The notes under the pieces are model-generated. The model was given only the letters and a program-made list of their open reading frames with translations, made no database searches and was not told the origin of the DNA. From NCBI RefSeq assembly GCF_003018235.1, contig NZ_CP027437.1: DNA of 64,000 bases, one strand, 5' to 3'. Below, in pieces: positions 11,914 through 37,151 of this stretch (its first letter is position 1; every line of letters starts with the position of its first letter). Made by a program: the position numbers and the translations under genes. This stretch comes from Escherichia coli (GTDB lineage Bacteria; Pseudomonadota; Gammaproteobacteria; Enterobacterales; Enterobacteriaceae).

Positions 11914-11946
11914 CTTGCGGGATTATGCTGCTTTAATCATTCAGGA

Positions 11947-20266: not shown

Positions 20267-21835
20267 TTAGCGTGCCGGCTGAGTAGTCGTGGAAGACTGC
20301 TCAAAGTGATAGCGACCGGTTTTCAGGCTGCTTGGGCCGAGGCGTGCAAACTTGAACATTAAGAACAATTCTGCCACCAGGAACAGGGTATACAGGCCGC
20401 AAATCAGCACCATTGAGAAGATGAGATCGCCTGCGGTCAGTGACGAGTTCGCCACAGCTGTCGGCAGCACTTCACCGATAGCCCACGGTTGGCGGCCATA
20501 TTCAGCCACGAACCAGCCCGCTTCTACAGCAATCCACGGCAGCGGAATACCGTACAGCGCGGCGCGCAGCAGCCATTTTTTCTCGCCAATGCGGTTGCGG
20601 ATGACACTCCAGAAAGAGAGCGCGATGATTGCCAGCAGCAGGAAGCCACACGCAACCATGATACGGAACGCGAAGTACAGCGGCGCTACACGCGGAATGG
20701 AGTCTTTGGTTGCCTGTTGAATCTGCGCTTCAGTCGCATCAGCCACGTTTGGCGTATAGCGTTTCAGCAGCAGACCGTAACCGAGGTCTTTCTTCATGCT
20801 ATTGAACTGGTCACGAACCGCCTGGTCGGTAGAACCAGAACGCAGTTGCTCGAGCAGAGAGTACGCCTTCATCCCGTTACGAATGCGTTCTTCATGCTGC
20901 ACCATCAGTTCTTTCAGGCCGATAACTGGAGTATCCACGGAACGCGTTGCAATGATGCCCAGCGCGTAAGGGATCTGGATCGCAAATTTGTTCGTCTCCT
21001 CTTCCTGATCAGGAATGCCGAACAGAGTAAAGGCAGCAGGCGCAGGTTGCGTTTCCCACTCGGCTTCAATAGCAGCCAGTTTGGTTTTCTGCACGTCGCC
21101 CATTTCGTAACCAGATTCATCACCCAGAACAATAACAGACAGAACGGCAGCCATACCGAAGCTGGCAGCGATAGCAAAGGAGCGTTTAGCGAAGGCGAAG
21201 TCACGACCTTTCAGCATATACCATGCGCTGATACCGAGGATGAACATCGCGCCAGTCACATAACCAGACGCTACAGTGTGAACGAATTTCACCTGAGCAA
21301 CCGGGTTAAGCACCAGCTCGGAGAAGCTCACCATCTCCATACGCATAGTTTCAAAGTTGAAATCGGACGCGATTGGGTTTTGCATCCAGCCGTTCGCAAC
21401 CAGAATCCACAGTGCGGACAGGTTTGAACCGAGCGCCACCAGCCAGGTGACACACATATGCTGAACTTTACCCAGACGATCCCAACCGAAGAAGAACAGA
21501 CCTACAAAGGTGGATTCGAGGAAGAAGGCCATTAGACCTTCGATTGCCAGCGGCGCACCGAAGATATCCCCTACATAGTGGGAATAGTAAGACCAGTTAG
21601 TCCCGAACTGGAACTCCATGGTCAGACCGGTAGCCACACCCAGAGCGAAGTTGATACCAAACAACTTGCCCCAGAACTTGGTCATATCTTTATAAATCTG
21701 TTTGCCGGAAAGGACGTAGACCGTTTCCATAATGGCCAGCAGGAACGCCATACCGAGCGTCAGTGGCACAAAAAGGAAGTGGTACATCGCGGTCAAGGCA
21801 AACTGTAAGCGCGACAGTTCGACTATATCTAACAT
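20267..21835 (-). CDS. cydA: cytochrome bd-I ubiquinol oxidase subunit I
   Basis: 522 aa (start at second Met, [14 protein letters not shown]); synteny. Confidence 0.95.
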
Positions 21836-22172
21836 CATGACTCCTTGCTCATCGCATGAAGACTCCGAGAGTGAACCCCGTTAGAAAGGGTCACACGCAT
21901 GCCCCAATACAAAATTATTTGCTCGCCTCTATCGTTGCCATTTCATCAAAAGAGGAAAAGACAATGATAAAAAAGTTACAAATATGTTAATGAATAAACC
22001 AAATTGATCCCGTAATTATATTACGCCGCAAAATCCTTACAATAAACAGGTTTTTATTGAGCAAATTTGCATTTTTCGACAGTGATCAATTTATAGCGAA
22101 ATTGTCACGATCTCACCAATTTGATCTACGACAATTTATCGTGTTTTGCAGATTTTTTTCAAGAATTAAAAA

Positions 22173-22186
22173 TTGATTTATATCAA
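22173..22186. promoter_or_regulatory. FNR box in cydA upstream regulatory region
   Basis: TTGATTTATATCAA fits TTGAT-N4-ATCAA consensus about 340 bp upstream of cydA ATG; weaker TTGATctacGACAA at 22119–22132. Confidence 0.6.
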
Positions 22187-22640
22187 AACCAACCAAATAT
22201 GTTAATTATGTATAAACCATAGATCATTGGTGATTTTATTGTTAATTTATTGTGAAATATTTATGCAACACAATTATTACAATGAAAAGGTATAGATAAA
22301 AAACCAGTGTTTTATTTAACAGAACCGCCCTATCCACTTTTTATAATACCAATTGATTAGATTAGCCAATTTGTTGCTATTTTACATAACATATTTTTAT
22401 CAAAGTTAATTGATTGTTGCCTTTATGAGCACCGGCCGTAAGCCCGTTATGTTATTGTTTCATTAGTAATAATCACTTAAATGTATCGATGAAACAGGTA
22501 TGACTTAGCGGGAGTGATTGTTTCTGAGTGAACAGAGACCACTTTCGCCTGATAAATGAAAAATGAGCGATTTTTGCAAGTTAGTTTTTCTATAGCCGAG
22601 TACGCTCAGCGCCTCGCTTGATTACAATGAGGTTGCTGCT

Positions 22641-23585
22641 ATGAGTCCTGATAATATCAGTTCTGCTGTCAATCGCTTCTCAGGTTGGCCATCTAATGAT
22701 CCTCTAAAAACAGATAAAGAATCAATGACATCACCCATGACTGTGCAGGTAATAAAGATGATTGCCGCCATCCTTGATCCACATCGGATAGTCGTTGGAA
22801 TCGATACACTTTATACAACGCAGCGCGAAACATTTACCTCAGAGAGTCAACAGCTCATTGAATCAGCATTGCAAACACTTCATGTGATGAATTTAAATAA
22901 CCTGGAAACAAATCTCGATGAGGAAGGTCACTATCTGGCTTTTGGATATAACGTTGACACTCCTGACAGAATAACCGTTTCTGCTTATAATGAAAAAAAG
23001 CCTGGCTGCTATGGTCAATGTCTTTTAATACAGGATGACGAAACAGACTTATTTAACCTGATAAAAGTTAAAATTTTTGAAGCCAGGCATAATTATGTCG
23101 CTCAATTGATGAGCGATCCGGAATTTATGTTCAAATTTAGTTATAGCGCTCAACAAAATAGATTAGAACCTCATCTTCTGGTTCCCACTTATTTCCCTCT
23201 AAAAACAAACGAACCGGTTACGCAAGAGGATGTACTGTTACTTTATCGTTTCTTTAAAATGGATGGTGATTTTAATATATTAACATCAGATGAATACATG
23301 AGTATCATGACACCTCTGATGAAGTGTGAGCGCAGCATCCACGACCACAACAGGTATGTGACGGGCAAAGATACCCTTCTTCTGGACTATCCTCCTTCTG
23401 GTAACCAGATATATTTCCATATTTTTCCTGACGAATCAGCAACACTAGTCCTTTATTTTTCAAACAATGACATTGAATGTTTCGTCTTTGAAAGAGATAT
23501 TCCGAGCCAGTATCGCTTTTTCAAAATGTTTACCAATCTGGCACTGGTTATTGATCAGTTAACCGATGCCAATCAAATACTTTAA
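22641..23585 (+). CDS. hypothetical protein (314 aa), AT-rich, no recognisable motif
   Basis: Long ORF with low GC (about 35–39% by eye) relative to flanks; acidic; no similarity I can recall. Confidence 0.6.
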   Translation: MSPDNISSAVNRFSGWPSNDPLKTDKESMTSPMTVQVIKMIAAILDPHRIVVGIDTLYTTQRETFTSESQQLIESALQTLHVMNLNNLETNLDEEGHYLAFGYNVDTPDRITVSAYNEKKPGCYGQCLLIQDDETDLFNLIKVKIFEARHNYVAQLMSDPEFMFKFSYSAQQNRLEPHLLVPTYFPLKTNEPVTQEDVLLLYRFFKMDGDFNILTSDEYMSIMTPLMKCERSIHDHNRYVTGKDTLLLDYPPSGNQIYFHIFPDESATLVLYFSNNDIECFVFERDIPSQYRFFKMFTNLALVIDQLTDANQIL

Positions 23586-23665
23586 TTTTTATATATTCCC
23601 TGTGGCAAATATTGCCAAACAATGCCCGGGGATTAATTTTTATTACTCACGGAAAGATTTAAATA

Positions 23666-24088
23666 ATGATCCCATCTCAAATCTCTTTCAACACCCTTCC
23701 TGTCAATGCAACATACGCTTCAGAGACAACAGTTGACACACAAAAATTCTCTGACATCCTCTACTCAGCGGGGTGTTCCCTAAAGGATCTGGCTTATCTG
23801 AGCAGATGTCTGGCATCAATACATCCGACTATCGCCAAAAACATTTATGAAACAGAAAATCTCAGCGATCAAAAATTACTGCATATTGATTGCCGTAGTA
23901 CAAATGAAATCAAGATAAATATCTTTTTTGGTCAACAACGAGAAGGATTAATTGAAATTAATTCTGACACTGTCATTTTTCCGATATTGTCTTCATTAAT
24001 TGACTCCGCCATTTCTAAATTTCAACACCAAATCCCCGTTAACGGTTCAGTAAATCCTGACCTATTGTATGAGGATTATACTGATTAA
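23666..24088 (+). CDS. hypothetical protein (140 aa), AT-rich, acidic C-terminus
   Basis: ORF immediately downstream of the 314-aa ORF in same orientation and composition. Confidence 0.5.
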   Translation: MIPSQISFNTLPVNATYASETTVDTQKFSDILYSAGCSLKDLAYLSRCLASIHPTIAKNIYETENLSDQKLLHIDCRSTNEIKINIFFGQQREGLIEINSDTVIFPILSSLIDSAISKFQHQIPVNGSVNPDLLYEDYTD

Positions 24089-24634
24089 ATCCACCCAGTC
24101 GCGAAAATGGCCTGCGTTATTGCCAGACGTAATAAAACTTTTGATTAACGTTACTCGTACTGGTAGCACCTTCATGTACTTTTCTTTTTTACGAAAAATC
24201 AAAAGAGCTAACAAAGGTCATAATTCGCATGAATCATTAATTATTTGTTATTTTCAACATTATTTTTACATTAAGCAGAGATGAATTGCAGTGAAATTCG
24301 ACTTAACTTTTATGAAATGCATTTACTCATGGCTAAAGCCACGTCACAAAAATGCAAATTAGAAGTTGATCACAATTATCTCAATACATCAAATCAAGTT
24401 AATTTTAAAAATTTAACATTCATGACATTAGTTGACATAACACACTGAATTAAAATGAGAATTTGAAAACACACTTTAAACAATCATTTCCCGAAAGACA
24501 TTTTGAAAATAGATCAATTGCAACATTACGGTCAGATAAAGACACTCCTGTGATATTAAACCTGTGCCGTTATGAGCGGCCATAAATACGACGTGTGTAA
24601 CTTATTTTACTCTCTGTCTTACAAAGGATTACCC

Positions 24635-25084
24635 ATGAAGAAAGCAACACTTGTGATTGGCGTTATTGGCGCGGACTGCCATGCAGTAGGCAATAAAGTT
24701 CTGGACCGCGTTTTTAGCAACCATGACTTCAGAGTTATTAATCTGGGCGTAATGGTCAGCCAGGACGAATATATTGATGCTGCCATTGAAACTGGTGCTG
24801 ACGCGATTGTCGTCTCCTCTATCTATGGGCATGGCGATATCGATTGTCTGGGCATGCGCGAACGCTGCATCGAGCGTGGGCTGGGTAACATCCTGCTCTA
24901 TGTGGGCGGTAACCTGGTGGTCGGAAAACATGACTTCGCTGACGTGGAAACCAAGTTCAAAGAGATGGGATTTGATCGCGTCTTTTCCCCAAGTCATGAC
25001 TTAGAAGATGTTTGTCAGCTGATGGCCCACGATATCAACCAACGTCATAACGTTGATACTCGCATTCTTGAAGAGGCAATCTGA
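24635..25084 (+). CDS. glmS: glutamate mutase sigma (B12-binding) subunit
   Basis: 149 aa from [21 protein letters not shown]: canonical DxHxxG cobalamin-binding motif and strong similarity to clostridial MutS/GlmS; RBS AAAGGA. Confidence 0.88.
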
Positions 25085-26472
25085 TGCAAATCGTCTCTGT
25101 CGATATTGGTTCGACGTGGACCAAAGCAGCCCTCTTCACCCGGGAGGGGGACGCGTTAACGTTGGTTAACCACGTTCTGACCCCAACCACCACCCATCAT
25201 CTGGCGAAGGGGTTTTTCTCCAGCCTGGACCAGGTGTTAAACGTAGATGATGCCCTCCCCCTGTTAAACAGTGGTGAGGTTGCATTGAAGTATTCCTCCT
25301 CTGCCAAAGGTGGGCTGGCGGTTGCCGCAATGGGATTGGTGCCTTCTATCACCCTGGAAACCGCGAAAGTAACCGCTCACTCTGCGGGTGCTAAAATTGC
25401 GCAATATTACGCCTACAAGCTGAACCGCCGTGATATCCAGGCACTGGAAGAAACGCAGCCCGATATTCTCTTATTCACCGGCGGCACCGATGGCGGAGAA
25501 GAAAGCTACGGACTGAATAACGCCCGTGTGTTGGCAGAATCCAAACTCGACTGCGCCATTATTTATGCCGGAAACCGGGATATTCAGGACGAGGTGCAGG
25601 AGATCCTCGGGCATAAAGACCTGACCATCGTCGACAACATTCTGCCCGATCTTGACCATCCGAACCCTTTAGCCGCACGCCAGGCTATCTGCGACATATT
25701 CCTTAAACGCATCGTTAAAGGGAAAGGGATGGATGTCGTTGTTGATAAAACAGGCGAAGAACCAATGCCGACACCATGGACGGTCTTTGAACTGGTTAAG
25801 GCAATCAGTAACGTCGATCACAGCTGGAAAGAGTTCATGCTGATCGACATGGGCGGCGCAACCACCGATGTCTATTCCGCCTGTGCCAACACGCTCTCGC
25901 CCGACACTGTTTTACATGGCGTACCGGAACCCTTCGTGAAACGGACGGTGGAAGGCGATCTGGGAATGCGCGTCTCGGCAATGGTGGTTGGTGAAAGTGC
26001 GAAAGAGTTAGTCAATGTGAATTTTGCTCAGCAACCCGCACAGCTGGACGCTTTTTATCATTACCTCCGTCATCTAGTCGCTCATCCCGACTACTTACCC
26101 GCGAATGCAGAAGAAAAATATTTCGATACCATCCTGGCCGGACTGTGTGTGGGTTATGCCACCGAAAGACATGCGGGCACCAAAAAAGAGGTCTGCACCT
26201 GCGTCGGCAATGTCGATTTACAGATGGGACGTGACCTGACAACCGTGCGTAAAGTCGTGGGTTCCGGCGGATGGCTCTCGCGTGCCAGTCAGTTCGATAT
26301 GCATCACTGGTTGAAATACCGCGAGTTAAACGACGACGGTAAACGCATTCTCTTACCGACCGAATTTGAATATTACCGCGATTCCCGGGGGCTATTACCA
26401 CTGCTGGCAAACGTCGCCAGAGTCGATCCACTGGCCGCCGCGCGCACCAGTATTCAATGCTTAACCCTATAA
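25084..26472 (+). CDS. glmL: glutamate mutase accessory protein GlmL/MutL (actin/Hsp70-fold ATPase-like, putative reactivase)
   Basis: 462 aa, translationally coupled (ATG overlaps glmS stop); sits between S and E subunit genes as in Clostridium. Confidence 0.75.
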   Translation: MQIVSVDIGSTWTKAALFTREGDALTLVNHVLTPTTTHHLAKGFFSSLDQVLNVDDALPLLNSGEVALKYSSSAKGGLAVAAMGLVPSITLETAKVTAHSAGAKIAQYYAYKLNRRDIQALEETQPDILLFTGGTDGGEESYGLNNARVLAESKLDCAIIYAGNRDIQDEVQEILGHKDLTIVDNILPDLDHPNPLAARQAICDIFLKRIVKGKGMDVVVDKTGEEPMPTPWTVFELVKAISNVDHSWKEFMLIDMGGATTDVYSACANTLSPDTVLHGVPEPFVKRTVEGDLGMRVSAMVVGESAKELVNVNFAQQPAQLDAFYHYLRHLVAHPDYLPANAEEKYFDTILAGLCVGYATERHAGTKKEVCTCVGNVDLQMGRDLTTVRKVVGSGGWLSRASQFDMHHWLKYRELNDDGKRILLPTEFEYYRDSRGLLPLLANVARVDPLAAARTSIQCLTL

Positions 26473-26490
26473 CAATTAAGGCTGCAATCA

Positions 26491-27936
26491 ATGGAACTTC
26501 GAAATAAGAAATTAACCCATAACGAATTCATGACCGAGCGGCAACAGGTATTGAAAACCTGGGAAACCGGCAAGGATGTTGAAAACTTTGAAGATGGCGT
26601 TAAATACCAACAAACCATTCCTGAGCATAAACGCTTCTCTCTTGCCCTGCTGAAAGCAGACAAGGAAGGTAAAACTCTTAGCCAACCGCGCGCAGGCGTG
26701 GCGCTGATGGACGAACACATCGAACTACTGAAAACACTACAAGAAGAGTGCGATCTGCTGCCGAGCACCATCGATGCATATACCCGTCTGAATCGGTACG
26801 AAGAAGCTGCTGTAGGGATTAAAAAATCCATCGAAGCCGGAACCTCTAAACTGAACGGTTTACCGGTCGTTAACCACGGCGTCGCAGCTTGCCGTCGCCT
26901 CACCGAAACTCTGCAAAAACCGCTACAGATCCGCCACGGCACGCCAGATGCGCGTCTGCTGGCTGAAATCTCGATGGCCAGCGGCTTTACCAGTTATGAA
27001 GGCGGCGGCATTTCCTACAATATTCCGTATGCCAAGCGCGTAACGCTGGAAAAATCGATCCGCGACTGGCAGTACTGCGACCGTTTAATGGGGATGTATG
27101 AAGAACACGGGATCCGCATCAACCGCGAACCATTTGGCCCACTAACGGGTACGCTGATCCCGCCGTTTATCTCGCACTCTATCGCGATAATCGAAGGATT
27201 ACTGGCGCTGGAACAGGGTGTGAAATCTATCACCGTTGGTTATGGACAGGTCGGCAGCCTGACGCAGGATGTCGCGGCGATCCAGTCTCTGCGTGAACTT
27301 GCACACGAATACTTTCAGAACTATGGCTATACCGACTATGAATTAAGTACCGTATTTCACCAGTGGATGGGCGGCTTTCCGGAAGACGAATCGAAAGCGT
27401 TCGCCATTATCTCCTGGGGTGCAGCCGTCGCGGGGATGTCTGGTGCCACCAAAGTCATCACCAAAAGCCCTCACGAAGCCTGGGGAATCCCGACTGCCGC
27501 TGCCAACATTCAGGGGCTGAAAGCCTCCCGCCAGATGCTCAACATGGTCAATGAGCAGAAATTCCCGCCGTGCCCTGCGGTTGAACTGGAAATTGAACTG
27601 ATTAAGAGCGAGGTTCGCGCGGTACTGAATAAAGTGTTCGAACTGGGTAATGGTGATATTGCGCGCGGTACGGTGCTGGCATTTGAAGCGGGCGTACTGG
27701 ATGTGCCATTTGCACCAGCCGCGTGTAACGCGGGCAAAATTCTTCCGGTCCGTGACAACACCGGCGCGATACGCGTACTGGAAGCCGGAGCCGTTCCATT
27801 GCCAAAAGATATTCTCGACCTCCACCACGATTACGTTGCTGAACGCGCACGCTTTGAAGGACGCCAACCGACATTCCAGATGGTTGTAGATGACATCAAT
27901 GCTGTATCCCACAGTAAATTAATAGGAAGACCATAA
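26491..27936 (+). CDS. glmE: glutamate mutase epsilon (catalytic) subunit, methylaspartate mutase E chain
   Basis: 481 aa; N-terminus MELRNKKLTHNEF...QVLKTWETGKDV closely resembles clostridial GlmE/MutE. Confidence 0.88.
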   Translation: MELRNKKLTHNEFMTERQQVLKTWETGKDVENFEDGVKYQQTIPEHKRFSLALLKADKEGKTLSQPRAGVALMDEHIELLKTLQEECDLLPSTIDAYTRLNRYEEAAVGIKKSIEAGTSKLNGLPVVNHGVAACRRLTETLQKPLQIRHGTPDARLLAEISMASGFTSYEGGGISYNIPYAKRVTLEKSIRDWQYCDRLMGMYEEHGIRINREPFGPLTGTLIPPFISHSIAIIEGLLALEQGVKSITVGYGQVGSLTQDVAAIQSLRELAHEYFQNYGYTDYELSTVFHQWMGGFPEDESKAFAIISWGAAVAGMSGATKVITKSPHEAWGIPTAAANIQGLKASRQMLNMVNEQKFPPCPAVELEIELIKSEVRAVLNKVFELGNGDIARGTVLAFEAGVLDVPFAPAACNAGKILPVRDNTGAIRVLEAGAVPLPKDILDLHHDYVAERARFEGRQPTFQMVVDDINAVSHSKLIGRP

Positions 27937-29177
27937 TGAAAATAAAACAGGCCCTTTTTACCGCTGGCTACTCCTCATTCTATTTCGATGACCAGCAGGC
28001 GATAAAAAACGGAGCGGGTCACGACGGTTTTTTTTATACCGGGGAGCCAGTAACACAGGGGTTTAACGCCGTACGTCAGGCCGGGGAGTGCGTATCGGTA
28101 CAGTTGATTCTGGAAAACGGCGCGGTCGCCGTAGGTGACTGTGCTGCCGTACAGTATTCCGGGGCAGGTGGTCGCGATCCACTGTTCCTCGCGGAGCACT
28201 TTATTCCGTTCCTCAACGACCATATCAAGCCATTACTGGTAGGCCGCGATGTGGATACTTTCCTGCCGAATGCCCGTTTCTTCGACAAATTGCGTATTGA
28301 CGGCAACTTGCTGCATACCGCCGTGCGCTACGGATTATCACAGGCGCTGCTTGATGCTACCGCGCTGGCAACCGGCCGTCTGAAAACTGAAGTGGTCTGT
28401 GATGAATGGCAGTTGCCACGCGTGGCGGAATCCATTCCATTATTTGGTCAGAGCGGCGACGATCGATATATCGCCGTCGATAAGATGATCCTTAAGGGCA
28501 TCGACGTGCAGCCCCATGCACTGATTAATAACGTCGAAGAGAAACTGGGCTTTAAAGGTGAAAAACTGCGCGAATATGTCCGCTGGCTGTCGGATCGTAT
28601 TCTGAGCAAGCGCACCAGCGCACGCTACCACCCTACCCTGCACATCGATGTATACGGCACTATCGGTCTGATCTTCGATATGGATCCGCTTCGCTGTGCG
28701 CAATACATCGCCAGCCTGGAAAAAGAAGCGCAAGGCCTGCCGCTCTACATTGAAGGTCCGGTCGATGCCGGTAACAAGCCCGATCAAATTCGCCTGCTGA
28801 CCGCGATTACCAAAGAGCTGACGCGCCTCGGTTCCGGCGTGAAACTAGTGGCCGATGAATGGTGTAACACCTACCAGGATATTGTTGATTTCACCGATGC
28901 CGCCAGTTGCCACATGGTGCAAATCAAAACCCCGGATCTGGGCAGTATTCACAACATCGTCAATGCAGTTCTTTATTGCAACAGCCACAGCATGGAAGCG
29001 TACCAGGGCGGCACCTGCAATGAAACTGATGTCAGTGCCCGCACCTGTGTCCACGTCGCCCTTGCCGCTCGCCCCATGCGTATGCTGGTAAAACCAGGGA
29101 TGGGCTTTGACGAAGGCCTCGATATCGTCTTCAACGAAATGAATCGTACTATCGCGCTGTTGCAGGCTAAGGATTAA
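27936..29177 (+). CDS. mal: 3-methylaspartate ammonia-lyase (methylaspartase)
   Basis: 413 aa; enolase-superfamily motifs (FYFDDQ, AVQYSGAGGRDPLFLA) matching clostridial/Citrobacter MAL. Confidence 0.9.
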   Translation: MKIKQALFTAGYSSFYFDDQQAIKNGAGHDGFFYTGEPVTQGFNAVRQAGECVSVQLILENGAVAVGDCAAVQYSGAGGRDPLFLAEHFIPFLNDHIKPLLVGRDVDTFLPNARFFDKLRIDGNLLHTAVRYGLSQALLDATALATGRLKTEVVCDEWQLPRVAESIPLFGQSGDDRYIAVDKMILKGIDVQPHALINNVEEKLGFKGEKLREYVRWLSDRILSKRTSARYHPTLHIDVYGTIGLIFDMDPLRCAQYIASLEKEAQGLPLYIEGPVDAGNKPDQIRLLTAITKELTRLGSGVKLVADEWCNTYQDIVDFTDAASCHMVQIKTPDLGSIHNIVNAVLYCNSHSMEAYQGGTCNETDVSARTCVHVALAARPMRMLVKPGMGFDEGLDIVFNEMNRTIALLQAKD

Positions 29178-29180
29178 CAA

Positions 29181-30551
29181 ATGGCTCGTTCTTTTAAAGT
29201 CTTATCGCCAACGGCAATCCTCGGGTATGGATTCCCGGAGGAGAGCTTCCGCAAAGCGATGGCAGAATCGCCCGATCTGATCGCCGTTGATGCTGGCTCT
29301 TCCGATCCTGGCCCCCACTACCTCGGGGCGGGCAAACCGTTTACCGCTCGCGCAGGGGTCAAGCGCGATCTGCGCTATATGATCACCGCAGGCGTGCAAA
29401 ATAATATACCGGTGGTGATCGGAACGGCCGGCGGTTCTGGTGCCGCTCCACATCTGGAGTGGTGCCGAGAAATAATTCATGAGATTGCCCGGGAAGAGCA
29501 CCTCTCGTTCTCGATGGCGCTGATCCCGGCAGACGTTGACAAAGCTATCGTCCACCAGGCGCTGGATAACGGCAAAATCACGGCGCTGGATTTTGTCCCG
29601 CCGTTAACCCACGACGCGATTGACGAAAGTACGTATATCGTCGCGCAAATGGGCATCGAACCCTTCCAGCGGGCGCTGAAAGAAGGCGCGCAAGTGGTGC
29701 TGGGCGGGCGCGCTTACGACCCGGCCTGCTTTGCTGCGCTTCCGATCATGCAAGGCTTTGATGAAGGTCTGGCGCTGCATTGTGGGAAAATCCTTGAATG
29801 CGCGGCAATCGCCGCAACGCCCGGCTCAGGCTCTGACTGTGCGATGGGCATCATTGATGACAACGGCTTTACGCTGAAGACATTTAATCCGAAGCGTAAA
29901 TTTACCGAAACGTCAGCGGCTGCACACACACTGTATGAGAAATCCGATCCCTACTTCCTGCCTGGACCTGGCGGCGTGTTGAACCTGAAAGGCTGCACAT
30001 TTAAAGCGGTCAATGACAGCGAAGTGTACGTCAGCGGTTCTAAGCATGAAGAAACGCCGTATTCCCTGAAACTGGAAGGTGCGCGACGGGTGGGCTTCCG
30101 CTGTCTGACCATCGCCGGAACGCGCGACCCGATCATGATCGCCGGGATCGATAAAATCATCGATGAAGTCAAAACCAGCGTTTCGCGTAACCTGTCGCTC
30201 GACGATGACAGCATTCACATCAATTTCCACCTGTACGGCAAAAACGGGGTGATGGGCGACCATGAACCGATGCAAACTGCCGGGCATGAGCTGGGGATTG
30301 TCCTAGATGTAGTTGCGCCGACCCAGGAGATTGCCAACAGCGTTTGCTCGCTGGTGCGCTCTACTATGCTGCACTACGGCTATGAAAACCGCATCGCTAC
30401 CGCAGGCAACCTGGCGTTCCCGTTCTCCCCTTCTGATATCCAGGGCGGGCCAGTATACGAATTTTCCATATATCACCTGATTGAAGCCAACGACGCTCTG
30501 CGTTTTGATTTCCATATTGAACAGGTGACGCCAGAAGGAGTTCAGGCATGA
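29181..30551 (+). CDS. conserved protein of unknown function, AtuA-like N-terminal part (DUF1446-type)
   Basis: 456 aa soluble protein; domain assignment from memory, not verified. Confidence 0.55.
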   Translation: MARSFKVLSPTAILGYGFPEESFRKAMAESPDLIAVDAGSSDPGPHYLGAGKPFTARAGVKRDLRYMITAGVQNNIPVVIGTAGGSGAAPHLEWCREIIHEIAREEHLSFSMALIPADVDKAIVHQALDNGKITALDFVPPLTHDAIDESTYIVAQMGIEPFQRALKEGAQVVLGGRAYDPACFAALPIMQGFDEGLALHCGKILECAAIAATPGSGSDCAMGIIDDNGFTLKTFNPKRKFTETSAAAHTLYEKSDPYFLPGPGGVLNLKGCTFKAVNDSEVYVSGSKHEETPYSLKLEGARRVGFRCLTIAGTRDPIMIAGIDKIIDEVKTSVSRNLSLDDDSIHINFHLYGKNGVMGDHEPMQTAGHELGIVLDVVAPTQEIANSVCSLVRSTMLHYGYENRIATAGNLAFPFSPSDIQGGPVYEFSIYHLIEANDALRFDFHIEQVTPEGVQA

Positions 30552-30865
30552 AACAGTCAATTGTCTCACTGGCGCAAGTCATTCGTTCGAAAAATGCCGG
30601 ACCTTACGAACTGGTTTTAGATATTTTATTTAAAACGAAAGAAAACTATGAGCGAGTTAAATCATCAGGGCAATTAACCCCAGAACTGATCGCGCGCTTA
30701 TATCATGTTGAACCTGACTTTATTCATCGTATTGTCTGGTTTGATCCTTCTAACGCAGTAAAAATCGTCATGCCACGAGATATTATCTCCGGGAATGTAG
30801 GTGACAATGATGTCTATGGCGCACAGCAACATGCACCTTTATTAAATATGAGTTTCGATTTGTAA
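30548..30865 (+). CDS. small conserved protein, AtuA-like C-terminal part (DUF4387-type)
   Basis: 105 aa; start overlaps upstream stop (ATGA), suggesting a two-subunit pair. Confidence 0.5.
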   Translation: MKQSIVSLAQVIRSKNAGPYELVLDILFKTKENYERVKSSGQLTPELIARLYHVEPDFIHRIVWFDPSNAVKIVMPRDIISGNVGDNDVYGAQQHAPLLNMSFDL

Positions 30866-30948
30866 AAATCCGAACACTTTTAGCCAACTGACATCCCGTC
30901 ACTTATTGCAGTTCAACACTTCAGCTATTTGTAAGGTTGTAATAGCAG

Positions 30949-30980
30949 GTAGATGCCTGAATCTCTATTCGGGCATCTAC
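30949..30980 (+). other. stable hairpin between AtuA-like pair and transporter gene
   Basis: Perfect 9-bp stem GTAGATGCC/GGCATCTAC followed by T-rich stretch. Confidence 0.45.
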
Positions 30981-31025
30981 TTCTCCTGATTCTGATTTAT
31001 CGCGGTGCACCTGATGGAGGAAAAA

Positions 31026-32306
31026 ATGAAGAAAATAAGTTTAACCACGATGATTCTTTTGGCGCTCGTACTTGGAATGATTATCGGCGTAGTGCTCAAT
31101 AACACTGCTTCACCGGAAACCGCAAAACTCTATGCGCAAGAAATATCGATATTCACGACGATTTTCTTACGACTGATAAAAATGATTATCGCTCCGTTAG
31201 TGGTCTCTACCCTGGTGGTAGGTATAGCTAAAATGGGAGATGCCAAAGCCCTTGGTCGTATTTTTTCTAAAACACTCTTTTTATTTATTTGCGCCTCATT
31301 GCTGTCAATTGCCTTAGGCTTGATAACAGTAAATTTCTTCATGCCAGGCACAGGAATTAATTTTGTTGCACACGGAGCCGAAACCACCGGAGTGGTCGCA
31401 TCAGAACCCTTTACGCTAAAAGTATTTATTTCGCATGCTTTCCCCACCAGCATTGTCGATGCCATGGCGCACAATGAAATTTTGCAAATCGTAGTGTTCT
31501 CAATTTTCCTCGGCTGTAGCCTGACGGCGATTGGCGAGAAAGGCAGCGCCATCGTTCACGCCTTAGATTCGCTGGCACATGCCATGTTAAAGCTCACTGG
31601 CTACGTCATGCTCTTCGCTCCCCTGACCGTATTCGCTGCTATTTCAGCATTGATTGCTGAACGAGGACTGGCAGTTATGGTGAGCGCCGGGATCTTTATG
31701 GGTGAATTTTATTTCACCATGTTATTACTTTGGGTGCTGCTTATCGGTCTGGCCATCGTTTATGTCGGCCCCTGCATCAGACGCCTGACCCGCGCCCTTT
31801 CGGAACCCGCTCTGCTGGCATTTACCACATCCAGTTCTGAAGCGGCTTTTCCGGGAACGCTTGAAAAACTGGAGCAATTTGGCGTTTCCCCCAAAATTGC
31901 CAGCTTTGTCTTACCCATTGGCTACTCATTTAATCTCGTTGGATCAATGGCCTACTGCTCCTTCGCCACAGTTTTCATCGCCCAGGCCTGCAATATCCAT
32001 TTATCCATCGGTGAGCAAATCACCATGCTGTTGATCCTGATGTTGACCTCGAAAGGAATGGCTGGCGTACCACGCGCCTCAATGGTGGTTATCGCCGCCA
32101 CGCTCAACCAGTTCAATATTCCGGAAGCGGGGCTGATCTTGCTGATGGGCGTTGATCCGTTCCTTGATATGGGGCGTTCCGCGACAAACGTCATGAGCAA
32201 CGCAATGGGCGCTGCGATGGTGAGTCGGTGGGAAGGCGAACATTTCGGCGAGGGTTGTCGGGGTAAAGCATTAAAACCCAATGAATCGAACGTTGCTCTG
32301 CCCTGA
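31026..32306 (+). CDS. dicarboxylate/amino acid:cation symporter (DAACS family, GltP/DctA-like)
   Basis: About 426 aa polytopic protein with GltP/DctA-type motifs; RBS GGAGG before ATG at 31026. Confidence 0.8.
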   Translation: MKKISLTTMILLALVLGMIIGVVLNNTASPETAKLYAQEISIFTTIFLRLIKMIIAPLVVSTLVVGIAKMGDAKALGRIFSKTLFLFICASLLSIALGLITVNFFMPGTGINFVAHGAETTGVVASEPFTLKVFISHAFPTSIVDAMAHNEILQIVVFSIFLGCSLTAIGEKGSAIVHALDSLAHAMLKLTGYVMLFAPLTVFAAISALIAERGLAVMVSAGIFMGEFYFTMLLLWVLLIGLAIVYVGPCIRRLTRALSEPALLAFTTSSSEAAFPGTLEKLEQFGVSPKIASFVLPIGYSFNLVGSMAYCSFATVFIAQACNIHLSIGEQITMLLILMLTSKGMAGVPRASMVVIAATLNQFNIPEAGLILLMGVDPFLDMGRSATNVMSNAMGAAMVSRWEGEHFGEGCRGKALKPNESNVALP

Positions 32307-32413
32307 GGGGGATCTTAAGCAATCAGAAGCCAATGACTACGCATTTTTATAAGCCGGATCATGAAGTTAGACGGCAATTAAGTAACACTAACGTTTAAGG
32401 TGAAAAGTGAAAT

Positions 32414-34065
32414 ATGTCCAAACCATTTATCTGGCAAGAACCGTTTCTACAAAATAAAGACGGTACAGAATATACATTAATTAGCGATCAACATATTACA
32501 GTAACGGAATTAGACGGCGAAGAAGTGATAAAAATCGCTCCTGAAGCATTAACGCTGCTTGCCCGGCAGGCATTTTATGAAGCCTCTTTTTTCTTACGTT
32601 CCGCTCATTTGCAACAGGTCGCCAGCATTCTTAACGATCCGCAGGCCAGTAGTAATGATAAATACGTTGCGTTGCAGTTATTACGTAATGCTGAAGTCTC
32701 AGCAAAAGGGGTATTACCCAACTGTCAGGATACCGGCACCGCAACTATTGTTGCCAGTAAAGGGCAACAGATATGGACGGGAGGTAACGACGCTGAAGCC
32801 TTAAGCAAAGGCATTTACAGTACTTTCCAGGAAAATAATCTGCGCTTTTCACAAAATGCGCCGCTGGATATGTATACCGAAGTCAATACGCAAACCAATC
32901 TCCCGGCGCAGATTGATATCAGCGCTGTCGCTGGTAATGAGTACCATTTTCTCTGTGTTAATAAAGGGGGCGGCTCCGCCAATAAAGCCGCACTTTATCA
33001 GGAAACCAAATCCTTATTGCAACCAGAAAAACTGACCGCATTTTTAATCGAAAAAATGAAATCGCTGGGCACCGCTGCCTGCCCGCCTTACCACATCGCC
33101 TTTGTCGTCGGAGGGCTTTCAGCCGATCAAACCTTAAAAGTTGCCAAGCTGGCCTCTACGAAATATTACGACAATTTGCCCACCAGCGGAAACGAGCAGG
33201 GACAAGCATTCCGTGATATTGAGCTGGAAAAAGTGTTGCTCGAGGTCAGTCAGCAATTTGGTATTGGTGCGCAATTTGGGGGTAAATATTTCGCTCATGA
33301 TATTCGCGTCATTCGTCTGCCGCGTCACGGTGGCTCTTGCCCGATAGCTATGGCGCTCTCCTGTTCTGCCGATCGCAATATCAAAGCAAAAATTAACAAG
33401 CACGGTATCTGGCTGGAAAAACTCGAACACAATCCGGGGCAATATATTCCAGCCTCACTGCGGGAAGAAAATCACGCGCAACATGTACAACTGGATCTAA
33501 ACCGTCCGTTGCGTGACGTGATGCAGGATCTCGCCAGATTACCGGTAGGCACCCGCGTGTCGTTAAGTGGTCCCATCGTAGTGGCACGCGATATCGCCAC
33601 GCCAAAATAAAAGCGCGGCTGGATAACGCCGAACCGATGCCGGATTACCTGAAGCATCATATTGTCTATTACGCTGGCTCGGCGAAAACACCGGAGAACA
33701 TGGCCTGCGGTTCACTGGGTCCAACCACGGGCGGTCGAATGGACGGTTATGTCGATACCTTCCAGGCGGCTGGCGGCAGTCTGGTGATGTTATCGAAAGG
33801 TAACCGCAGCCAGCAGGTCACCGATGCCTGTCACAAACATGGTGGCTTCAATCTGGGTAGTATTGGCGGTGCAGCTGCGTTACTGGCGCAAGAATATGTC
33901 AAAAGTCTGCGTTGCCTGGAATACCCGGAGCTGGGTATGGAAGCGGTGTGGATGATGGAAGTGGAAAATCTGCCCGCATTCATCCTGGTAGATGATAAAG
34001 GCAATAATTTCTTTAGTCAGTTTGAGCAGCAACACCGCTGCGCCAGTTGCCCTGCGGGACATTAA
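32414..34065 (+). pseudogene. fumD: class I fumarate hydratase family (FumD-type mesaconase), interrupted by apparent 1-bp deletion near 33595
   Basis: ORFs 32414..33610 and 33637..34065 are N- and C-terminal parts of one FumA-like protein; C-part frame reads ...[20 protein letters not shown] continuously upstream, offset one base from ...[11 protein letters not shown]. Confidence 0.75.
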
Positions 34066-34074
34066 GGAAAATGA

Positions 34075-34677
34075 ATGGAAGCGCGAATTTCAACTGAACG
34101 GCATGTGCAGCGCCAGCAGAAATTGAAGGAACAGGTCGATACGCGCATCGCGGCGGCGATAGAGAAAAAAGGGATTTTGATTGTTTTCACCGGCAATGGC
34201 AAAGGGAAATCCACTGCCGCGTTTGGTACTGTGACGCGCGCGGTGGGTCATGGCAAAACGGTGGGGGTTGCGCAGTACATCAAGGGGCAATGGGACAACG
34301 GCGAATACAACCTTCTCCAGCCGCTGGGGGTTGAGTTTCATATTATGGGAACCGGTTTTACCTGGGAGACACAGAACCGGCAAGCGGATATCGACGCGGC
34401 GAAAGAGGTCTGGTCGGAAAGCAAACGGATGCTGGCTGACAAGCGTTACGACTTAGTGGTGCTTGATGAGCTGACCTATATGCTGGCTTACCATTATCTG
34501 GATACCGAAGAAGTGATCGCTTCTCTGCAAAACCGCCCGGCACAACAAAGTGTCATTGTCACCGGACGCGGTTGCCACAGTCAGATATTAAAAATGGCGG
34601 ATACGGTCAGCGAAATCCGCCCCGTCAAACATGCTTTTGATAACGGCATTCAGGCCCAGCCGGGTATCGACTGGTAA
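34075..34677 (+). CDS. cob(I)alamin/cob(I)yrinic acid a,c-diamide adenosyltransferase (BtuR/CobA paralog)
   Basis: 200 aa; P-loop GNGKGKSTAAFG and strong similarity to E. coli BtuR. Confidence 0.85.
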   Translation: MEARISTERHVQRQQKLKEQVDTRIAAAIEKKGILIVFTGNGKGKSTAAFGTVTRAVGHGKTVGVAQYIKGQWDNGEYNLLQPLGVEFHIMGTGFTWETQNRQADIDAAKEVWSESKRMLADKRYDLVVLDELTYMLAYHYLDTEEVIASLQNRPAQQSVIVTGRGCHSQILKMADTVSEIRPVKHAFDNGIQAQPGIDW

Positions 34678-34680
34678 TAA

Positions 34681-34712
34681 CTGCGCCTGGCATCCCGCCA
34701 GGCGCAGGTTTT
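34681..34712. terminator. bidirectional terminator between adenosyltransferase gene and LysR gene
   Basis: Hairpin CTGCGCCTGG(catcccg)CCAGGCGCAG followed by TTTT. Confidence 0.6.
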
Positions 34713-35616
34713 ACATCTCCTGCGGTACAACCGATTTCGCCAGCAACCATTCACGAAATTGCTGCAAGTGCGGTGAGTCAGACTTCTCTTCCTGCCACGT
34801 CATAATAAAACGATTACCGGTACGAATAGGCACATCACAGGGGATCACCATATCGCCACTATCCAAATCATGTTGAATAGCGAAACGTGGTAACAGCGCC
34901 ACGCCGAGATTAGAGCGCACGGCGGCAATCAGCATTGAAAGCAAATCGAAACGTGGTCCGTTGTTGACCAGCGGACTGCTAACGCCAGATAAGGCAAACC
35001 ACTCTTCCCAGCCAGTAATACGGGTACTTTGATGCAGAAGTGGTAACTCTGTAAGCAGTTCTGCCACTGACAGTTTTTGATCGGACATTGCAAGCAAACT
35101 GCCGCTGCATACCGGCAAAATCTCCTCATCAAAGAGATATTCTACTTCCGCCCAGGGCGCGCAAAAATTTTCGCGCATAATGACAGCATCGTACTCCCGA
35201 TTAAGAAAATCGCCGTTATTAGCTAAAGAGTGAATATTAACAATAATATCGGGATGTAACTTTGTGAATTCATGTAAATTTGGGATTAACCAGTGGGTAC
35301 TAAACGTAGGATTCACGGCAAGTTCAATAACCTGAACCGTAGGCTGCCAGGTCATAATGGTATTGGTATCGCGTTCCAGCTTATTTAATGTTTCTTTTAC
35401 TATCCCCAGGTAATACTTCCCTGCATCATTAAGAAAAATACGTTTTTTAGAGTGTGAAAATAACGGAGTATGTAAAAATTCCTCCAGCGCACTCACTTGT
35501 CTGAATACTGCACTTTGGGTCAACGCTAACTCCTCTGCCGCTTTGGTATAACTTTCATGACGTGCGACGACCTCAAAAGTCACCAGCAGCTCCGTTTTAG
35601 GTATTTTTCCTCGCAT
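34711..35616 (-). CDS. LysR-family transcriptional regulator
   Basis: 301 aa; N-terminal HTH (TKAAEELALTQSAVFRQVSALE) and LysR substrate-binding domain. Confidence 0.85.
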   Translation of the reverse strand: MRGKIPKTELLVTFEVVARHESYTKAAEELALTQSAVFRQVSALEEFLHTPLFSHSKKRIFLNDAGKYYLGIVKETLNKLERDTNTIMTWQPTVQVIELAVNPTFSTHWLIPNLHEFTKLHPDIIVNIHSLANNGDFLNREYDAVIMRENFCAPWAEVEYLFDEEILPVCSGSLLAMSDQKLSVAELLTELPLLHQSTRITGWEEWFALSGVSSPLVNNGPRFDLLSMLIAAVRSNLGVALLPRFAIQHDLDSGDMVIPCDVPIRTGNRFIMTWQEEKSDSPHLQQFREWLLAKSVVPQEM

Positions 35617-36182
35617 AATGCCGTCCCTTAAAAATAGTTTAAACCATCAAAAATACATTACTTATTACGAAGTAATGGTAACCAAAGCAGCAATAAATAA
35701 TTTATAAGAATCATGATTGACATTTATAACCCAGTAAGCCTGGCGTGACAAATATCTTAATCAGATAATAATAATCCGAAAAGCACAGCGCCTTTCGAAT
35801 TATCCGGAATCACATTAAGTGAAAATTATTAAATTGATATCATTTATCATATCTGTGGATATTATGATAAACAATCAACAAAGATTTTATTTTTGATTTA
35901 TAGCATATCCCTCTAAGAATTTTTGCGATGCTGCAATATCCGGGGTAAAGACCCGATCCTGGCTGACAAATGGCACGACTTGACGATAAGCGGTGAACAT
36001 CGCTTTTGTTGATTTACTTAACGCTACGGTCAAACGCTGGGAAGCCAGTGCATCAGGTAACGATTCGAAATTCGCCGTCGTTCTTATTCGTGGCTTGCGG
36101 TCGGTTGCGGCAATCCACAGTGGCTGTGGTCATGCAGTCAAGCCAGCGGTCAGATTTCGACCGTGGTTAACATTTAAGGCAT

Positions 36183-36281
36183 AAAAAAGGCCATCATACG
36201 ATGGCCAACCATGTCGAAACCGACAGCCCTTCGCCATTCCTGTAGAGGGAAGCGGCGAGGGCTATTTCTTATTACAGATAT
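36183..36281 (-). ncRNA. sdhX: probable 3'-UTR-derived sRNA SdhX (RybD) with intrinsic terminator
   Basis: Region directly after sucD stop ends in hairpin GGCCATCGTATGATGGCC plus U-run on minus strand; identity by position, not sequence match. Confidence 0.45.
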
Positions 36282-37151
36282 TTATTTCAGAACAGTTTTC
36301 AGTGCTTCACCGATATCCGCCAGGCTGCGAACGGTTTTCACGCCTGCGGCTTCCAGAGCAGCGAATTTCTCATCCGCAGTCCCTTTACCACCGGCAATGA
36401 TGGCACCCGCGTGGCCCATACGTTTGCCTTTCGGCGCAGTCACACCAGCGATGTAACCCACAACAGGCTTGGTAACGTGCTCTTTGATGTACGCAGCCGC
36501 TTCTTCTTCAGCGCTACCGCCGATCTCACCGATCATCACGATCGCTTCGGTCTGCGGATCTTTTTCGAACATTTCGAGGATGTCGATAAAGTTAGAGCCA
36601 GGGATCGGGTCGCCGCCGATACCGACACAGGTCGACTGACCGAAACCGTAATCCGTGGTCTGTTTAACCGCTTCATAGGTCAGTGTACCGGAACGGGAAA
36701 CGATACCCACTTTACCCGGTTTGTGAATGTGACCAGGCTGGATACCGATTTTGCATTCACCCGGAGTGATAACGCCTGGGCAGTTCGGGCCGATCATACG
36801 AACGCCAGCTTCGTCCAGTTTCACTTTCACAGTCAGCATATCCAGCGTCGGGATGCCTTCAGTGATGGTGATAATCAGTTTGATGCCTGCATCAATAGCT
36901 TCCAGAATGGAGTCTTTGCAGAACGGTGCTGGTACGTAGATAACAGAAGCGGTAGCGCCAGTAGCAGCAACAGCTTCACGCACGGTGTTGAACACCGGCA
37001 GGCCGAGGTGGGTGGTGCCGCCTTTACCTGGGGTTACGCCGCCAACCATTTTAGTGCCGTATGCAATGGCCTGTTCTGAGTGGAAAGTCCCCTGGCTACC
37101 GGTAAAGCCCTGGCAGATAACCTTGGTGTTTTTATCAATTAAAATGGACAT
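36282..37151 (-). CDS. sucD: succinyl-CoA synthetase alpha subunit
   Basis: 289 aa; CoA-binding motifs. Confidence 0.95.

Follow-up and report, generated by a model that had tools for sequence, protein, structure and literature searches.

We examined what is encoded by the DNA lying between cydA and sucD in a 64,000-nucleotide stretch of Escherichia coli (contig NZ_CP027437.1; hereafter the window), how far the glutamate pathway suggested by its genes extends, and whether the segment is a working system, a relic or a recent import. The genes cydA (20267-21838) and sucD (36282-37151), both on the minus strand, enclose an uninterrupted set of island ORFs from 22641 to 35616, and the observation of a glutamate island at this locus, made in an earlier note from the letters alone, is confirmed. 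Homology to a K-12-type genome in blastn ended at 22211 and restarted at 36179, and for a B2-type genome the breaks fell at 22476 and 36181; the left border thus lies in the cydA upstream region (21839-22476), and the two pairs of breaks give a strain-specific segment of about 13.7-14.0 kb, showing that the earlier note located the island correctly (22600-35700) but drew it slightly too narrow. K-12-type genomes have the order cydA-mngB-mngA-mngR-sucD here, as the note had stated, and in B2-type genomes a TPR pseudogene occupies the interval; an O157:H7 genome carries the island (98.0% identity to the window over 14.3 kb). The note's statement that no integrase, transposase or tRNA adjoins the island also held: no tRNA genes were found in window 18000-40000, no meaningful repeats flank the island, and near-identical islands carry neither an integrase nor a transposase in their RefSeq annotation. 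The G+C content is 52% for the island vs 50% for the window. The island ORFs match their RefSeq annotation in length for every gene except fumD, and only two indels separate the window from the genome of Ecol_316 over 19.3 kb.

Profile searches supported each gene family that the earlier note had named (glmS-glmL-glmE, 3-methylaspartate ammonia-lyase, FumD-type fumarase, DAACS symporter, adenosyltransferase and LysR regulator). Identities were assigned with NCBIfam equivalog models and their curated cut-offs, which were exceeded by GlmS, GlmL, GlmE, MAL and CobA; the identities of the island enzymes are established from sequence. On the plus strand, glmS (24635-25084), for the B12-binding subunit S of glutamate (methylaspartate) mutase, scored 251.9 bits on NF002612 (cut-off 110) and also matched TIGR01501; its product aligned with the C. 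cochlearium protein 1I9C (E 3e-49) and has the DxHxxG motif at residues 14-19. It is followed by glmL, or mutL (25084-26472, plus), for the accessory/reactivating protein (NF040745, 508.7 bits, cut-off 475; TIGR01319, 888.9 bits), and by glmE (26491-27936, plus), for the catalytic subunit E (TIGR01503, 864 bits, cut-off 390; E 1e-189 to 6H9E/1CCW). The mal gene (27936-29177, plus; TIGR01502, 539 bits, cut-off 286) encodes a 3-methylaspartate ammonia-lyase that aligned full-length with the Citrobacter amalonaticus enzyme 1KKO (E 9e-268), and also with 1KCZ of C. tetanomorphum, retaining Q73, Q172, H194, D238, E273, D307, Q329, K331, C361 and L384. Other work has characterised FumD itself and proteins homologous to MAL, glutamate mutase and CmlAB.

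The earlier note found no citramalate lyase and left the fate of citramalate open; this is overturned by the two genes that follow mal. The products of cmlA (29181-30551, plus; annotated 'AtuA family', DUF1446) and cmlB (30548-30865, plus; DUF4387), whose ORFs overlap, match PDB 9ERQ/9EVF over their full length: CmlA is about 90% identical to subunit A with all 456 residues aligned, and CmlB aligned over 104 of 105 residues with 9ERQ_B, 'Citramalate lyase, subunit B (cmlB)' (E 5e-57). These structures, released in October 2025, were solved with AMPPNP and citramalate and with ADP and pyruvate. In a preprint (bioRxiv 10.64898/2026.01.16.699985), the two-subunit Cml of Raoultella planticola (cmlAB, a gift of the Berg laboratory) was used in vivo to split citramalate into pyruvate and acetate, and endogenous FumA made citramalate from mesaconate. 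In every context examined, distant phyla included, cmlB stands behind cmlA. PDB molecule names and titles, the one preprint and synteny thus point to a predicted citramalate lyase CmlAB, and with both lyase genes present the encoded route would run from glutamate to pyruvate, acetate and ammonia. The match of cmlA and cmlB to the citramalate lyase structures speaks against a pathway ending at mesaconate or citramalate. The idea that mesaconate or (S)-citramalate, both C5 dicarboxylates, is instead released as a signal or host-directed metabolite, with no catabolism, was raised by Kronen and Berg (PMC4682846) and implied by the title of the earlier note. Kronen and Berg suggested secretion after they had detected no activity of citramalate lyase in cells grown on citrate, acetate or propionate; however, those cells were not expressing the cluster, so the absent activity is little informative, and two intact operon genes correspond to a citramalate lyase of solved structure and are conserved alongside mal in different phyla. 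We regard release as very improbable.

A gene for a dicarboxylate/amino acid:cation symporter (DAACS/SDF, GltP/DctA-like; 31026-32306, plus), with E 1e-90 to 1e-93 on DctA and GltP models but under their equivalog cut-offs, is kept 3' of cmlB in all enterobacterial and Aeromonas islands examined, and is presumed to import glutamate. The product of the cobO/cobA-type ATP:cob(I)alamin adenosyltransferase gene (34075-34677, plus; NF004637, 296 bits, cut-off 185; TIGR00708, 246.6 bits, cut-off 167.75) is predicted to make the cofactor adenosylcobalamin. A LysR-family regulator gene (GcvA/DsdC-like; 34711-35616, minus; NF008352, E 1e-65, under cut-off) stands beside the cluster in 6 of 6 enterobacterial and Aeromonas contexts examined. 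A G+C-rich hairpin of 11 pairs, picked up by the terminator scan (34681-34707, inverted repeat I6), separates cobO from the convergent LysR gene and is likely a bidirectional terminator closing the operon. Upstream of glmS, matches to the promoter consensus were no commoner than in shuffled sequence, and none was prominent; cross-genus comparison of the spacer revealed a 20-bp element, TTTTGAAAATAGATCAATTG (24501-24520, plus), 115-134 bp 5' of glmS. The element does not vary between Escherichia, Pseudescherichia, Enterobacter and Aeromonas, and Yersinia shares 17 of its 20 bases, while the rest of the spacer is about 50% identical across genera. Each island has a single copy, in all cases 93-144 bp 5' of glmS. 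The element contains the dyad TGA-N7-TCA, compatible with T-N11-A. It is possibly the operator of the operon, with the LysR regulator a candidate ligand.

The fumD gene (32414-34065, plus) belongs, as the earlier note stated, to the FumD-type mesaconases (class I fumarase/mesaconase), but the note overlooked that it is a pseudogene: comparison with the Ecol_316 translation and the alignment indels revealed that a single C is absent at about 33596 (GCCCAC to GCCAC), and the frameshift splits the gene into a 398-aa ORF (32414-33610) and a 142-aa one (33637-34065). The intact Ecol_316 orthologue scored 1281 bits on NF011921, above cut-off. The deletion was found in 0 of 1068 island-bearing complete genomes, so the gene is intact elsewhere and the lesion is private to the window's strain. 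FumD favours mesaconate 2-3-fold, and FumA and FumB also hydrate mesaconate (Kronen and Berg 2015, PMC4682846); with fumD frameshifted, these promiscuous housekeeping enzymes would have to stand in.

Two deletion scars mark the spacer between the LysR gene and sucD. One (35887-36080, minus) comprises the 3'-terminal ~138 bp of a gene for a histidine ammonia-lyase (HAL/hutH-like), together with a 62-bp internal fragment: in blastn to strain EC-10 (sequence L019, HAL CDS 20716-22386), window 34672-36024 aligned with L019 23601-22249 and 36019-36080 with L019 21906-21845. The other (36084-36184, plus) comprises two fragments of the rtcB 3' end, matched to L019 and to L004 (rtcB 8367-9764); the restart of K-12-type homology at 36179, the right border, falls within it. 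A long form, in which the island is joined to HAL-hutG-hutI-hutD-permease-hutU and rtcB, is present in EC-10 and 143 other complete E. coli genomes. EC-10 and the window share the left part and the LysR gene (LysR and spacer about 95% identical), but the window lacks the ~10-kb hut-rtcB segment, of which HAL and rtcB fragments totalling about 300 bp are left (35887-36184); these remnants mark the window copy as a deletion derivative of the longer form. The hut genes yield glutamate from histidine, and their contiguity with the island in 144 genomes counts in favour of a role in glutamate breakdown.

At the left end are two AT-rich ORFs that are Escherichia-only orphans. The first (314 aa, 38% G+C; 22641-23585, plus), which lies outside the pathway, had no match in NCBIfam, Pfam, PADLOC or PHROGs and belonged to only 5 clusters among 5.8 billion proteins, the sole named one being E. 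coli; it was not found in Pseudescherichia and Enterobacter islands, and a homologue with 65% identity occupies the cydA-sucD interval of a genome without the glutamate genes. For the second (140 aa, 37% G+C; 23666-24088, plus), family searches gave nothing, and a complete HMMER scan of 1.84 billion representatives returned only near-identical sequences and fragments.

The broken fumD and the deleted hut module fit relaxed selection and, with the rtcB scar, could mark the island as a relic in decay, silent in E. coli, whose recognisable genes are unused, at least in the window's strain, and are being lost piecemeal. In an O157:H7 strain, Kronen and Berg (PMC4682846) saw no expression, activity or growth phenotype: MAL activity, anaerobic growth on glutamate and growth stimulation by glutamate were all not detected. 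The island is found in 1117 of 5426 complete E. coli genomes, about a fifth, leaving some four fifths without it; strain A25 retains only glmS-glmL and a truncated glmE; and the arm immediately 5' of the operon is AT-rich (32-38% G+C), a type of DNA typically silenced by H-NS, which may apply here. Against this, all island genes but fumD keep the annotated ORF length, with the few indels noted above, the fumD lesion is private and FumD replaceable by FumA and FumB, and the core cassette and the 20-bp element are kept across genera, which argues for purifying selection. We therefore consider a relic unlikely, though it deserves to be kept in mind.

Clostridium is the best-known source of this chemistry, and the island varies in presence among E. 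coli strains, with mng genes at its place in K-12, as might follow if the segment had recently been acquired by horizontal transfer from clostridia or another group of Firmicutes and had displaced mngR-mngAB. We give this almost no credence. The pathway genes have a host-like G+C content (49-53%), the nearest homologues come from enterobacteria (MAL hardly differs from the Citrobacter enzyme, and CmlA shares 83-89% identity with its counterparts in Salmonella, Aeromonas, Enterobacter and Pseudescherichia), the gene content is unlike that of clostridial clusters, and mobility genes, tRNA and flanking repeats are all absent. The P. vulneris (Pseudescherichia) cluster lies at the same cydA-sucD locus, and the Enterobacter cluster adjoins sucD beside mngBAR rather than replacing it. 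Such recurrence also supports the pathway reading: the core is present in Yersinia and Aeromonas as well; Riflebacteria and a 5.5-Mb genome have glmS-mutL-glmE-mal-AtuA-DUF4387 with a nearby class I fumarase gene and without citDEF, and in a Lentisphaerae contig the glm, mal, AtuA and DUF4387 genes are interspersed with others. Base composition and shared locus thus indicate that the island is old rather than newly imported from clostridia.

We consider it quite probable that the segment is an enterobacterial methylaspartate-pathway cluster for L-glutamate breakdown, present here as a slightly decayed copy; what follows on its expression, regulation and role in E. coli physiology is our inference. 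Glutamate would be imported by the DAACS symporter and converted by adenosylcobalamin-dependent GlmS/GlmE to (2S,3S)-3-methylaspartate, with GlmL keeping the mutase active and CobO supplying the cofactor from salvaged corrinoid. E. coli is not known to synthesise B12 de novo, so the pathway would need external corrinoids. MAL would release ammonia to give mesaconate; a class I Fe-S hydratase, normally FumD and in the window's strain FumA or FumB, would form (S)-citramalate; and the two-subunit, nucleotide-binding CmlAB would cleave this to pyruvate and acetate, for processing by the host's own enzymes, pyruvate formate-lyase and Pta-AckA among them. Under anoxia the whole conversion would be redox-neutral and ATP-yielding. 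The genes from glmS to cobO form a single plus-strand unit ending at the hairpin, probably controlled by the upstream TTTTGAAAATAGATCAATTG element and the adjacent LysR regulator.

The island is an already known cluster, the 'glutamate fermentation gene cluster' of E. coli O157:H7 described by Kronen and Berg in 2015 (PLoS One, PMC4682846). Genes, order and locus are the same, and the legend of their Fig. 5 (GlmS, MutL/GlmL, GlmE, Mal, DUF1446, GltP, FumD, CobA, LTTR) agrees with the window, which differs in its frameshifted fumD; they did not settle DUF1446 and the fate of citramalate, and later structures identify DUF1446 plus DUF4387 as citramalate lyase. The CmlAB of 9ERQ/9EVF and of the island are both two-gene units with overlapping ORFs, the island pair being known from its sequence. 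The haloarchaeal methylaspartate cycle likewise reaches mesaconate through glutamate mutase and MAL, but activates it to mesaconyl-CoA, whereas the island has a hydratase and lyase and no CoA-transferase or mesaconyl-CoA hydratase. Clostridial clusters (C. tetanomorphum, C. tetani; glmS-mutL-glmE-mal-mesAB-citDEF with GntR) share homologous GlmS, GlmE and MAL and the sequence glutamate, methylaspartate, mesaconate, (S)-citramalate, pyruvate plus acetate; however, their mesaconase is the two-subunit MesAB rather than one fused FumD chain, their lyase is an ACP-containing CitDEF-type complex unrelated to CmlAB, and their regulator is GntR, where the island has LysR together with a DAACS symporter and CobO. 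The 'clostridial methylaspartate pathway' of the earlier note is thus apt for the chemistry but not for the gene type, which, with fused FumD, CmlAB, LysR, host-like G+C and an enterobacterial locus, is that of the enterobacterial cluster.

The cydA-sucD interval was examined by ORF calling, family searches and comparison with related genomes. A run of ORFs from 22641 to 35616, the last of which alone is on the minus strand, is flanked by cydA (20267–21838, minus strand) and sucD (36282–37151, minus strand). Two near-identical genomes were used for comparison, E. coli strain Ecol_316 (99.6% identity) and one O157:H7 strain (98.0%), for both of which the RefSeq order is two hypothetical proteins, glmS, glmL, methylaspartate mutase subunit E, methylaspartate ammonia-lyase, "acyclic terpene utilization AtuA family protein", DUF4387, a dicarboxylate/amino acid:cation symporter, class I fumarate hydratase, cobO and a LysR-type regulator. 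NCBIfam curated equivalog cut-offs were passed by GlmS, GlmL, GlmE, methylaspartate ammonia-lyase (MAL) and CobA, and by the intact FumD orthologue of Ecol_316. The island reported between cydA and sucD in an earlier note, made without database searches, was confirmed by the ORF run and the family searches, and most of its gene calls were right, since our own searches agreed with the RefSeq annotation; its reading is for the most part correct, but outdated on the fate of citramalate and wrong in the clostridial origin that it implied.

The borders of the island shifted with the genome chosen for comparison. Homology to a K-12-type genome (cydA-mngB-mngA-mngR-sucD, in agreement with the earlier statement that K-12 carries mngR-mngAB at this spot) stopped at 22211 and restarted at 36179; homology to B2-type genomes, with a TPR pseudogene alone at the spot, stopped at 22476 and restarted at 36181. 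The island showed none of the marks of a mobile genomic island (integrase or transposase, tRNA insertion, flanking direct repeats): no tRNA was detected between 18000 and 40000, no significant flanking repeats were found, and the RefSeq annotation of the near-identical islands has no integrase or transposase, which bears out what had been stated from the sequence.

The ORFs in the order glmS-glmL-glmE are predicted, from family scores and motifs, to encode glutamate (methylaspartate) mutase (EC 5.4.99.1), catalyzing the adenosylcobalamin-dependent interconversion of glutamate and methylaspartate. GlmS is a separate S subunit with the base-off/His-on cobalamin motif DxHxxG present as DCHAVG (residues 14–19); it scored 251.9 bits on NF002612 (cut-off 110) and matched 1I9C with an E value of 3e-49. 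GlmE, of the Met_asp_mut_E family, scored 864 bits on TIGR01503 (cut-off 390), and both GlmE and GlmS matched Clostridium cochlearium structures; GlmL/MutL, encoded between the S and E genes, scored 508.7 bits on NF040745 (cut-off 475). MAL (3-methylaspartate ammonia-lyase, EC 4.3.1.2, enolase superfamily) scored 539 bits on TIGR01502 (cut-off 286) and retained every residue checked: the Mg ligands D238, E273 and D307 and the catalytic K331, H194 and Q329, these roles being those of the Clostridium tetanomorphum enzyme. Its alignments with 1KKO of Citrobacter amalonaticus and 1KCZ of C. tetanomorphum were full length and ungapped.

The claim that the island is without a citramalate lyase did not hold. 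The AtuA-family ORF (29181–30551) matched chain A of PDB entries 9ERQ/9EVF, named by the depositors "Citramalate lyase, subunit A (cmlA)", over all 456 residues with about 90% identity (E 1.6e-289), and the adjacent DUF4387 ORF (30548–30865) matched chain B, "Citramalate lyase, subunit B (cmlB)", with an E value of 5e-57; thus an adjacent AtuA/DUF1446 and DUF4387 gene pair matches both solved CmlAB chains at full length. Cleavage of citramalate to pyruvate and acetate is implied by the titles of these PDB entries and has been reported for CmlAB of Raoultella planticola in a preprint (bioRxiv 10.64898/2026.01.16.699985), in which citramalate was formed from mesaconate by endogenous FumA. The E. 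coli cmlA and cmlB genes are thus predicted to encode an (S)-citramalate lyase yielding pyruvate and acetate. A CitDEF-type lyase (EC 4.1.3.22; ACP gamma, acyl-transferase alpha and lyase beta) was matched by no island ORF, and none appears in the RefSeq annotation. With CmlAB present, the island would therefore encode a full route from glutamate to pyruvate, acetate and ammonia, and its earlier description as a glutamate-to-mesaconate island stops too short.

Homologues of CmlA with at least 60% identity are widespread. Of four distant homologues examined, three belong to glm-mal clusters, two of which have class I fumarase genes nearby: a Riflebacteria genome and one further distant genome have the order GntR-glmS-mutL-glmE-mal-AtuA-DUF4387 with class I fumarase genes close and without citDEF. 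In a Lentisphaerae contig this gene set (glm, mal, AtuA, DUF4387) is interrupted by other genes, and no fumarase gene was seen in the stretch read; the fourth homologue, from Accumulibacter, is solitary and outside any glm-mal cluster. This synteny lends independent support to CmlAB as the lyase. Directly after DUF4387 in the Riflebacteria, Lentisphaerae and further distant clusters (comparison loci L007:10712–11665, L008:14269–15201 and L010:10677–11618) there is a protein of about 313 aa with a Walker A motif (GAEGxGKST), no Pfam match and 62% identity across phyla; it is missing from the E. coli island and could be an additional accessory factor of the pathway. Within cmlA, window 29000–29999 holds 16 of the 77 substitutions counted against Ecol_316 over 19.3 kb, which may represent a small recombination patch.

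The fumD gene of the window is broken. Compared with Ecol_316 and O157:H7, one C has been lost at about 33596 (GCCCAC to GCCAC), so that the gene, 550 codons long when intact, is read as two ORFs of 398 and 142 codons; the frame is interrupted within the C-terminal domain (residues 372–535 of the intact protein), and the window is left without a single intact chain of about 550 aa carrying the Fumerase and Fumerase_C domains, whereas the intact Ecol_316 FumD scored 1281 bits on NF011921 (cut-off 1060). A 61-base probe over the lesion had matches in 1068 complete genomes, each of 98.4% identity and each retaining the extra C; since none of the 1068 has the deletion, the lesion is either private to this strain or a sequencing error. 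A generally error-prone assembly was ruled out, the deletion being the sole coding indel relative to Ecol_316 within window 1–35646. FumD favours mesaconate over fumarate 2–3-fold, and FumA and FumB also hydrate mesaconate (Kronen & Berg 2015, PMC4682846); given this activity of FumA and FumB, and an Aeromonas island with no fumD in its vicinity, the lesion need not have inactivated the pathway.

Between genera, the spacer ahead of glmS shares only about 50% identity, except for a 20-bp block, TTTTGAAAATAGATCAATTG, at window 24501–24520. This block is invariant across Escherichia, Pseudescherichia, Enterobacter and Aeromonas, and Yersinia shares 17 of its 20 bases. Each island has a single copy, 93–144 bp upstream of glmS. 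The block carries a TGA-N7-TCA dyad (TTGA-N7-TCAA) that fits T-N11-A, the pattern of LysR-type operators; the adjacent LysR regulator would be the obvious candidate to bind it. An FNR or CRP site was not called at this block, TTGA-N7-TCAA being one base wider than the FNR site TTGAT-N4-ATCAA. A strong hairpin (34681–34707) lies between the convergent cobO and LysR genes. No cobalamin riboswitch or other known RNA was detected in 21500–36500 (Rfam, E up to 1), and matches to consensus sigma-70 promoters were no commoner than in shuffled sequence, with none outstanding upstream of glmS.

The island is old and modular rather than a recent clostridial import. The pathway genes are 49–53% G+C (window, 50.2%), and the core cassette is found in other genera. 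Pseudescherichia vulneris carries cydA-glmS-glmL-glmE-mal-cmlA-cmlB-symporter-fumD-LysR-sucD at the same locus as the window; an Enterobacter genome has the cluster between mngB-mngA-mngR and sucD, so mng genes and island can coexist; Yersinia and Aeromonas have the core cassette at other loci. A glutaminase gene, which the E. coli island is without, lies between symporter and fumD in the Enterobacter (L014:13119–14135) and Salmonella (L013:12446–13447) versions and would widen the pathway input to glutamine. The Salmonella enterica contig holds a decayed cluster in which glmE, cmlA, cmlB, symporter, glutaminase and LysR were called, and glmS, glmL, mal and fumD were not; it adjoins an ISL3 transposase, a KfrA_N-domain gene and hdeA, and may lie on a mobile or plasmid-like background.

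The two ORFs at the left arm, 22641–23585 (314 aa) and 23666–24088 (140 aa), lie in DNA of 32–38% G+C and had no matches in NCBIfam, PADLOC or PHROGs, nor, for the 314-aa ORF, in Pfam. Homologues, sought by word-indexed search of 5.8 billion proteins (314 aa) and by full HMMER scan (140 aa), were near-identical sequences and fragments only, the sole named one from E. coli. Neither ORF is present in the Pseudescherichia and Enterobacter islands, and a genome without the glutamate genes has a 65%-identical copy of the 314-aa ORF at its cydA-sucD spot; both ORFs are separate residents of a variable spot, outside the pathway. The 314-aa product was also considered as the protein of about 313 aa that follows DUF4387 in the distant clusters and was ruled out, the two having no similarity.

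At least five states of the cydA-sucD spot were seen in E. coli: a long form (144 of 5426 complete genomes), in which the island is followed by HAL-hutG-hutI-hutD-permease-hutU and rtcB (hut module at L006:19889–26026 and, in E. coli EC-10, L019:12490–22386); the short form of the window; a hybrid with glmS-glmL, truncated glmE, rtcB and mngBAR; mngBAR alone; and the TPR pseudogene alone. Strain 2016C-3878 also has the long form. In some other genomes (H57) rtcB lies beside mngBAR with the island missing. The LysR-sucD spacer of the window retains fragments of the HAL gene (35887–36080) and of the rtcB 3' end (36084–36184), and these scars show that the short form descends from the long one, with about 10 kb lost. 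Since Hut enzymes turn histidine into glutamate, the long form physically joins histidine and glutamate breakdown; for gut anaerobes, Hut and the methylaspartate pathway have been grouped as a single "oxidative histidine pathway" in a 2026 preprint. In the searchable literature we found no description of this physical linkage in E. coli, nor of the TGA-N7-TCA operator and the modular decay series. We tentatively suggest, with slightly less than even confidence, that the spot was formerly the site of a roughly 24-kb supercluster, leading from histidine through Hut to glutamate and onward by the methylaspartate pathway and CmlAB to pyruvate and acetate, under the cross-genus TGA-N7-TCA operator, and that the window was caught in mid-decay, with hut and rtcB deleted leaving scars and fumD frameshifted.

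Elsewhere in the window, 61985–64000 did not align to Ecol_316. This region has an ISAs1/H-repeat-type transposase in two minus-strand ORFs (62149–62454 and 62458–62856) and two small ORFs (63057–63747), possibly a toxin/immunity-like pair; the equivalent position in Ecol_316 is occupied by a CDI immunity gene. At 11400–11920, downstream of cpoB, the Ecol_316 alignment breaks and overlaps at a tRNA-Lys/tRNA-Val array with RtT repeats, whose arrangement is unlike that of Ecol_316.

At least 80% of the segment was present in 1117 of 5426 complete E. coli genomes (20.6%); the published frequency of the cluster is 26.5% among E. coli genomes overall and 90.6% among those of O157:H7 (PMC4682846). 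Roughly one E. coli strain in five, O157:H7 included, is genetically equipped to ferment or oxidise glutamate, an amino acid plentiful in the gut, with B12 scavenged from the microbiota. Kronen & Berg did not find citramalate lyase activity, left "DUF1446" unexplained, and obtained neither expression of the genes nor growth on glutamate (PMC4682846). Recognition of CmlAB fills the gap that left the pathway seemingly incomplete for a decade, and the question therefore moves from the fate of citramalate to when the operon is expressed. For annotation, fumD of the window should be marked as a pseudogene (or re-sequenced), and the "AtuA family" and DUF4387 genes named as citramalate lyase.

Nothing here is new in kind. 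The cluster is already known, having been described in E. coli O157:H7 in the 2015 paper that named FumD (PMC4682846), and the lyase is covered by the 2025 PDB entries. Specific to the window are the private fumD frameshift and the deletion scar that ties it to the hut-containing long form.
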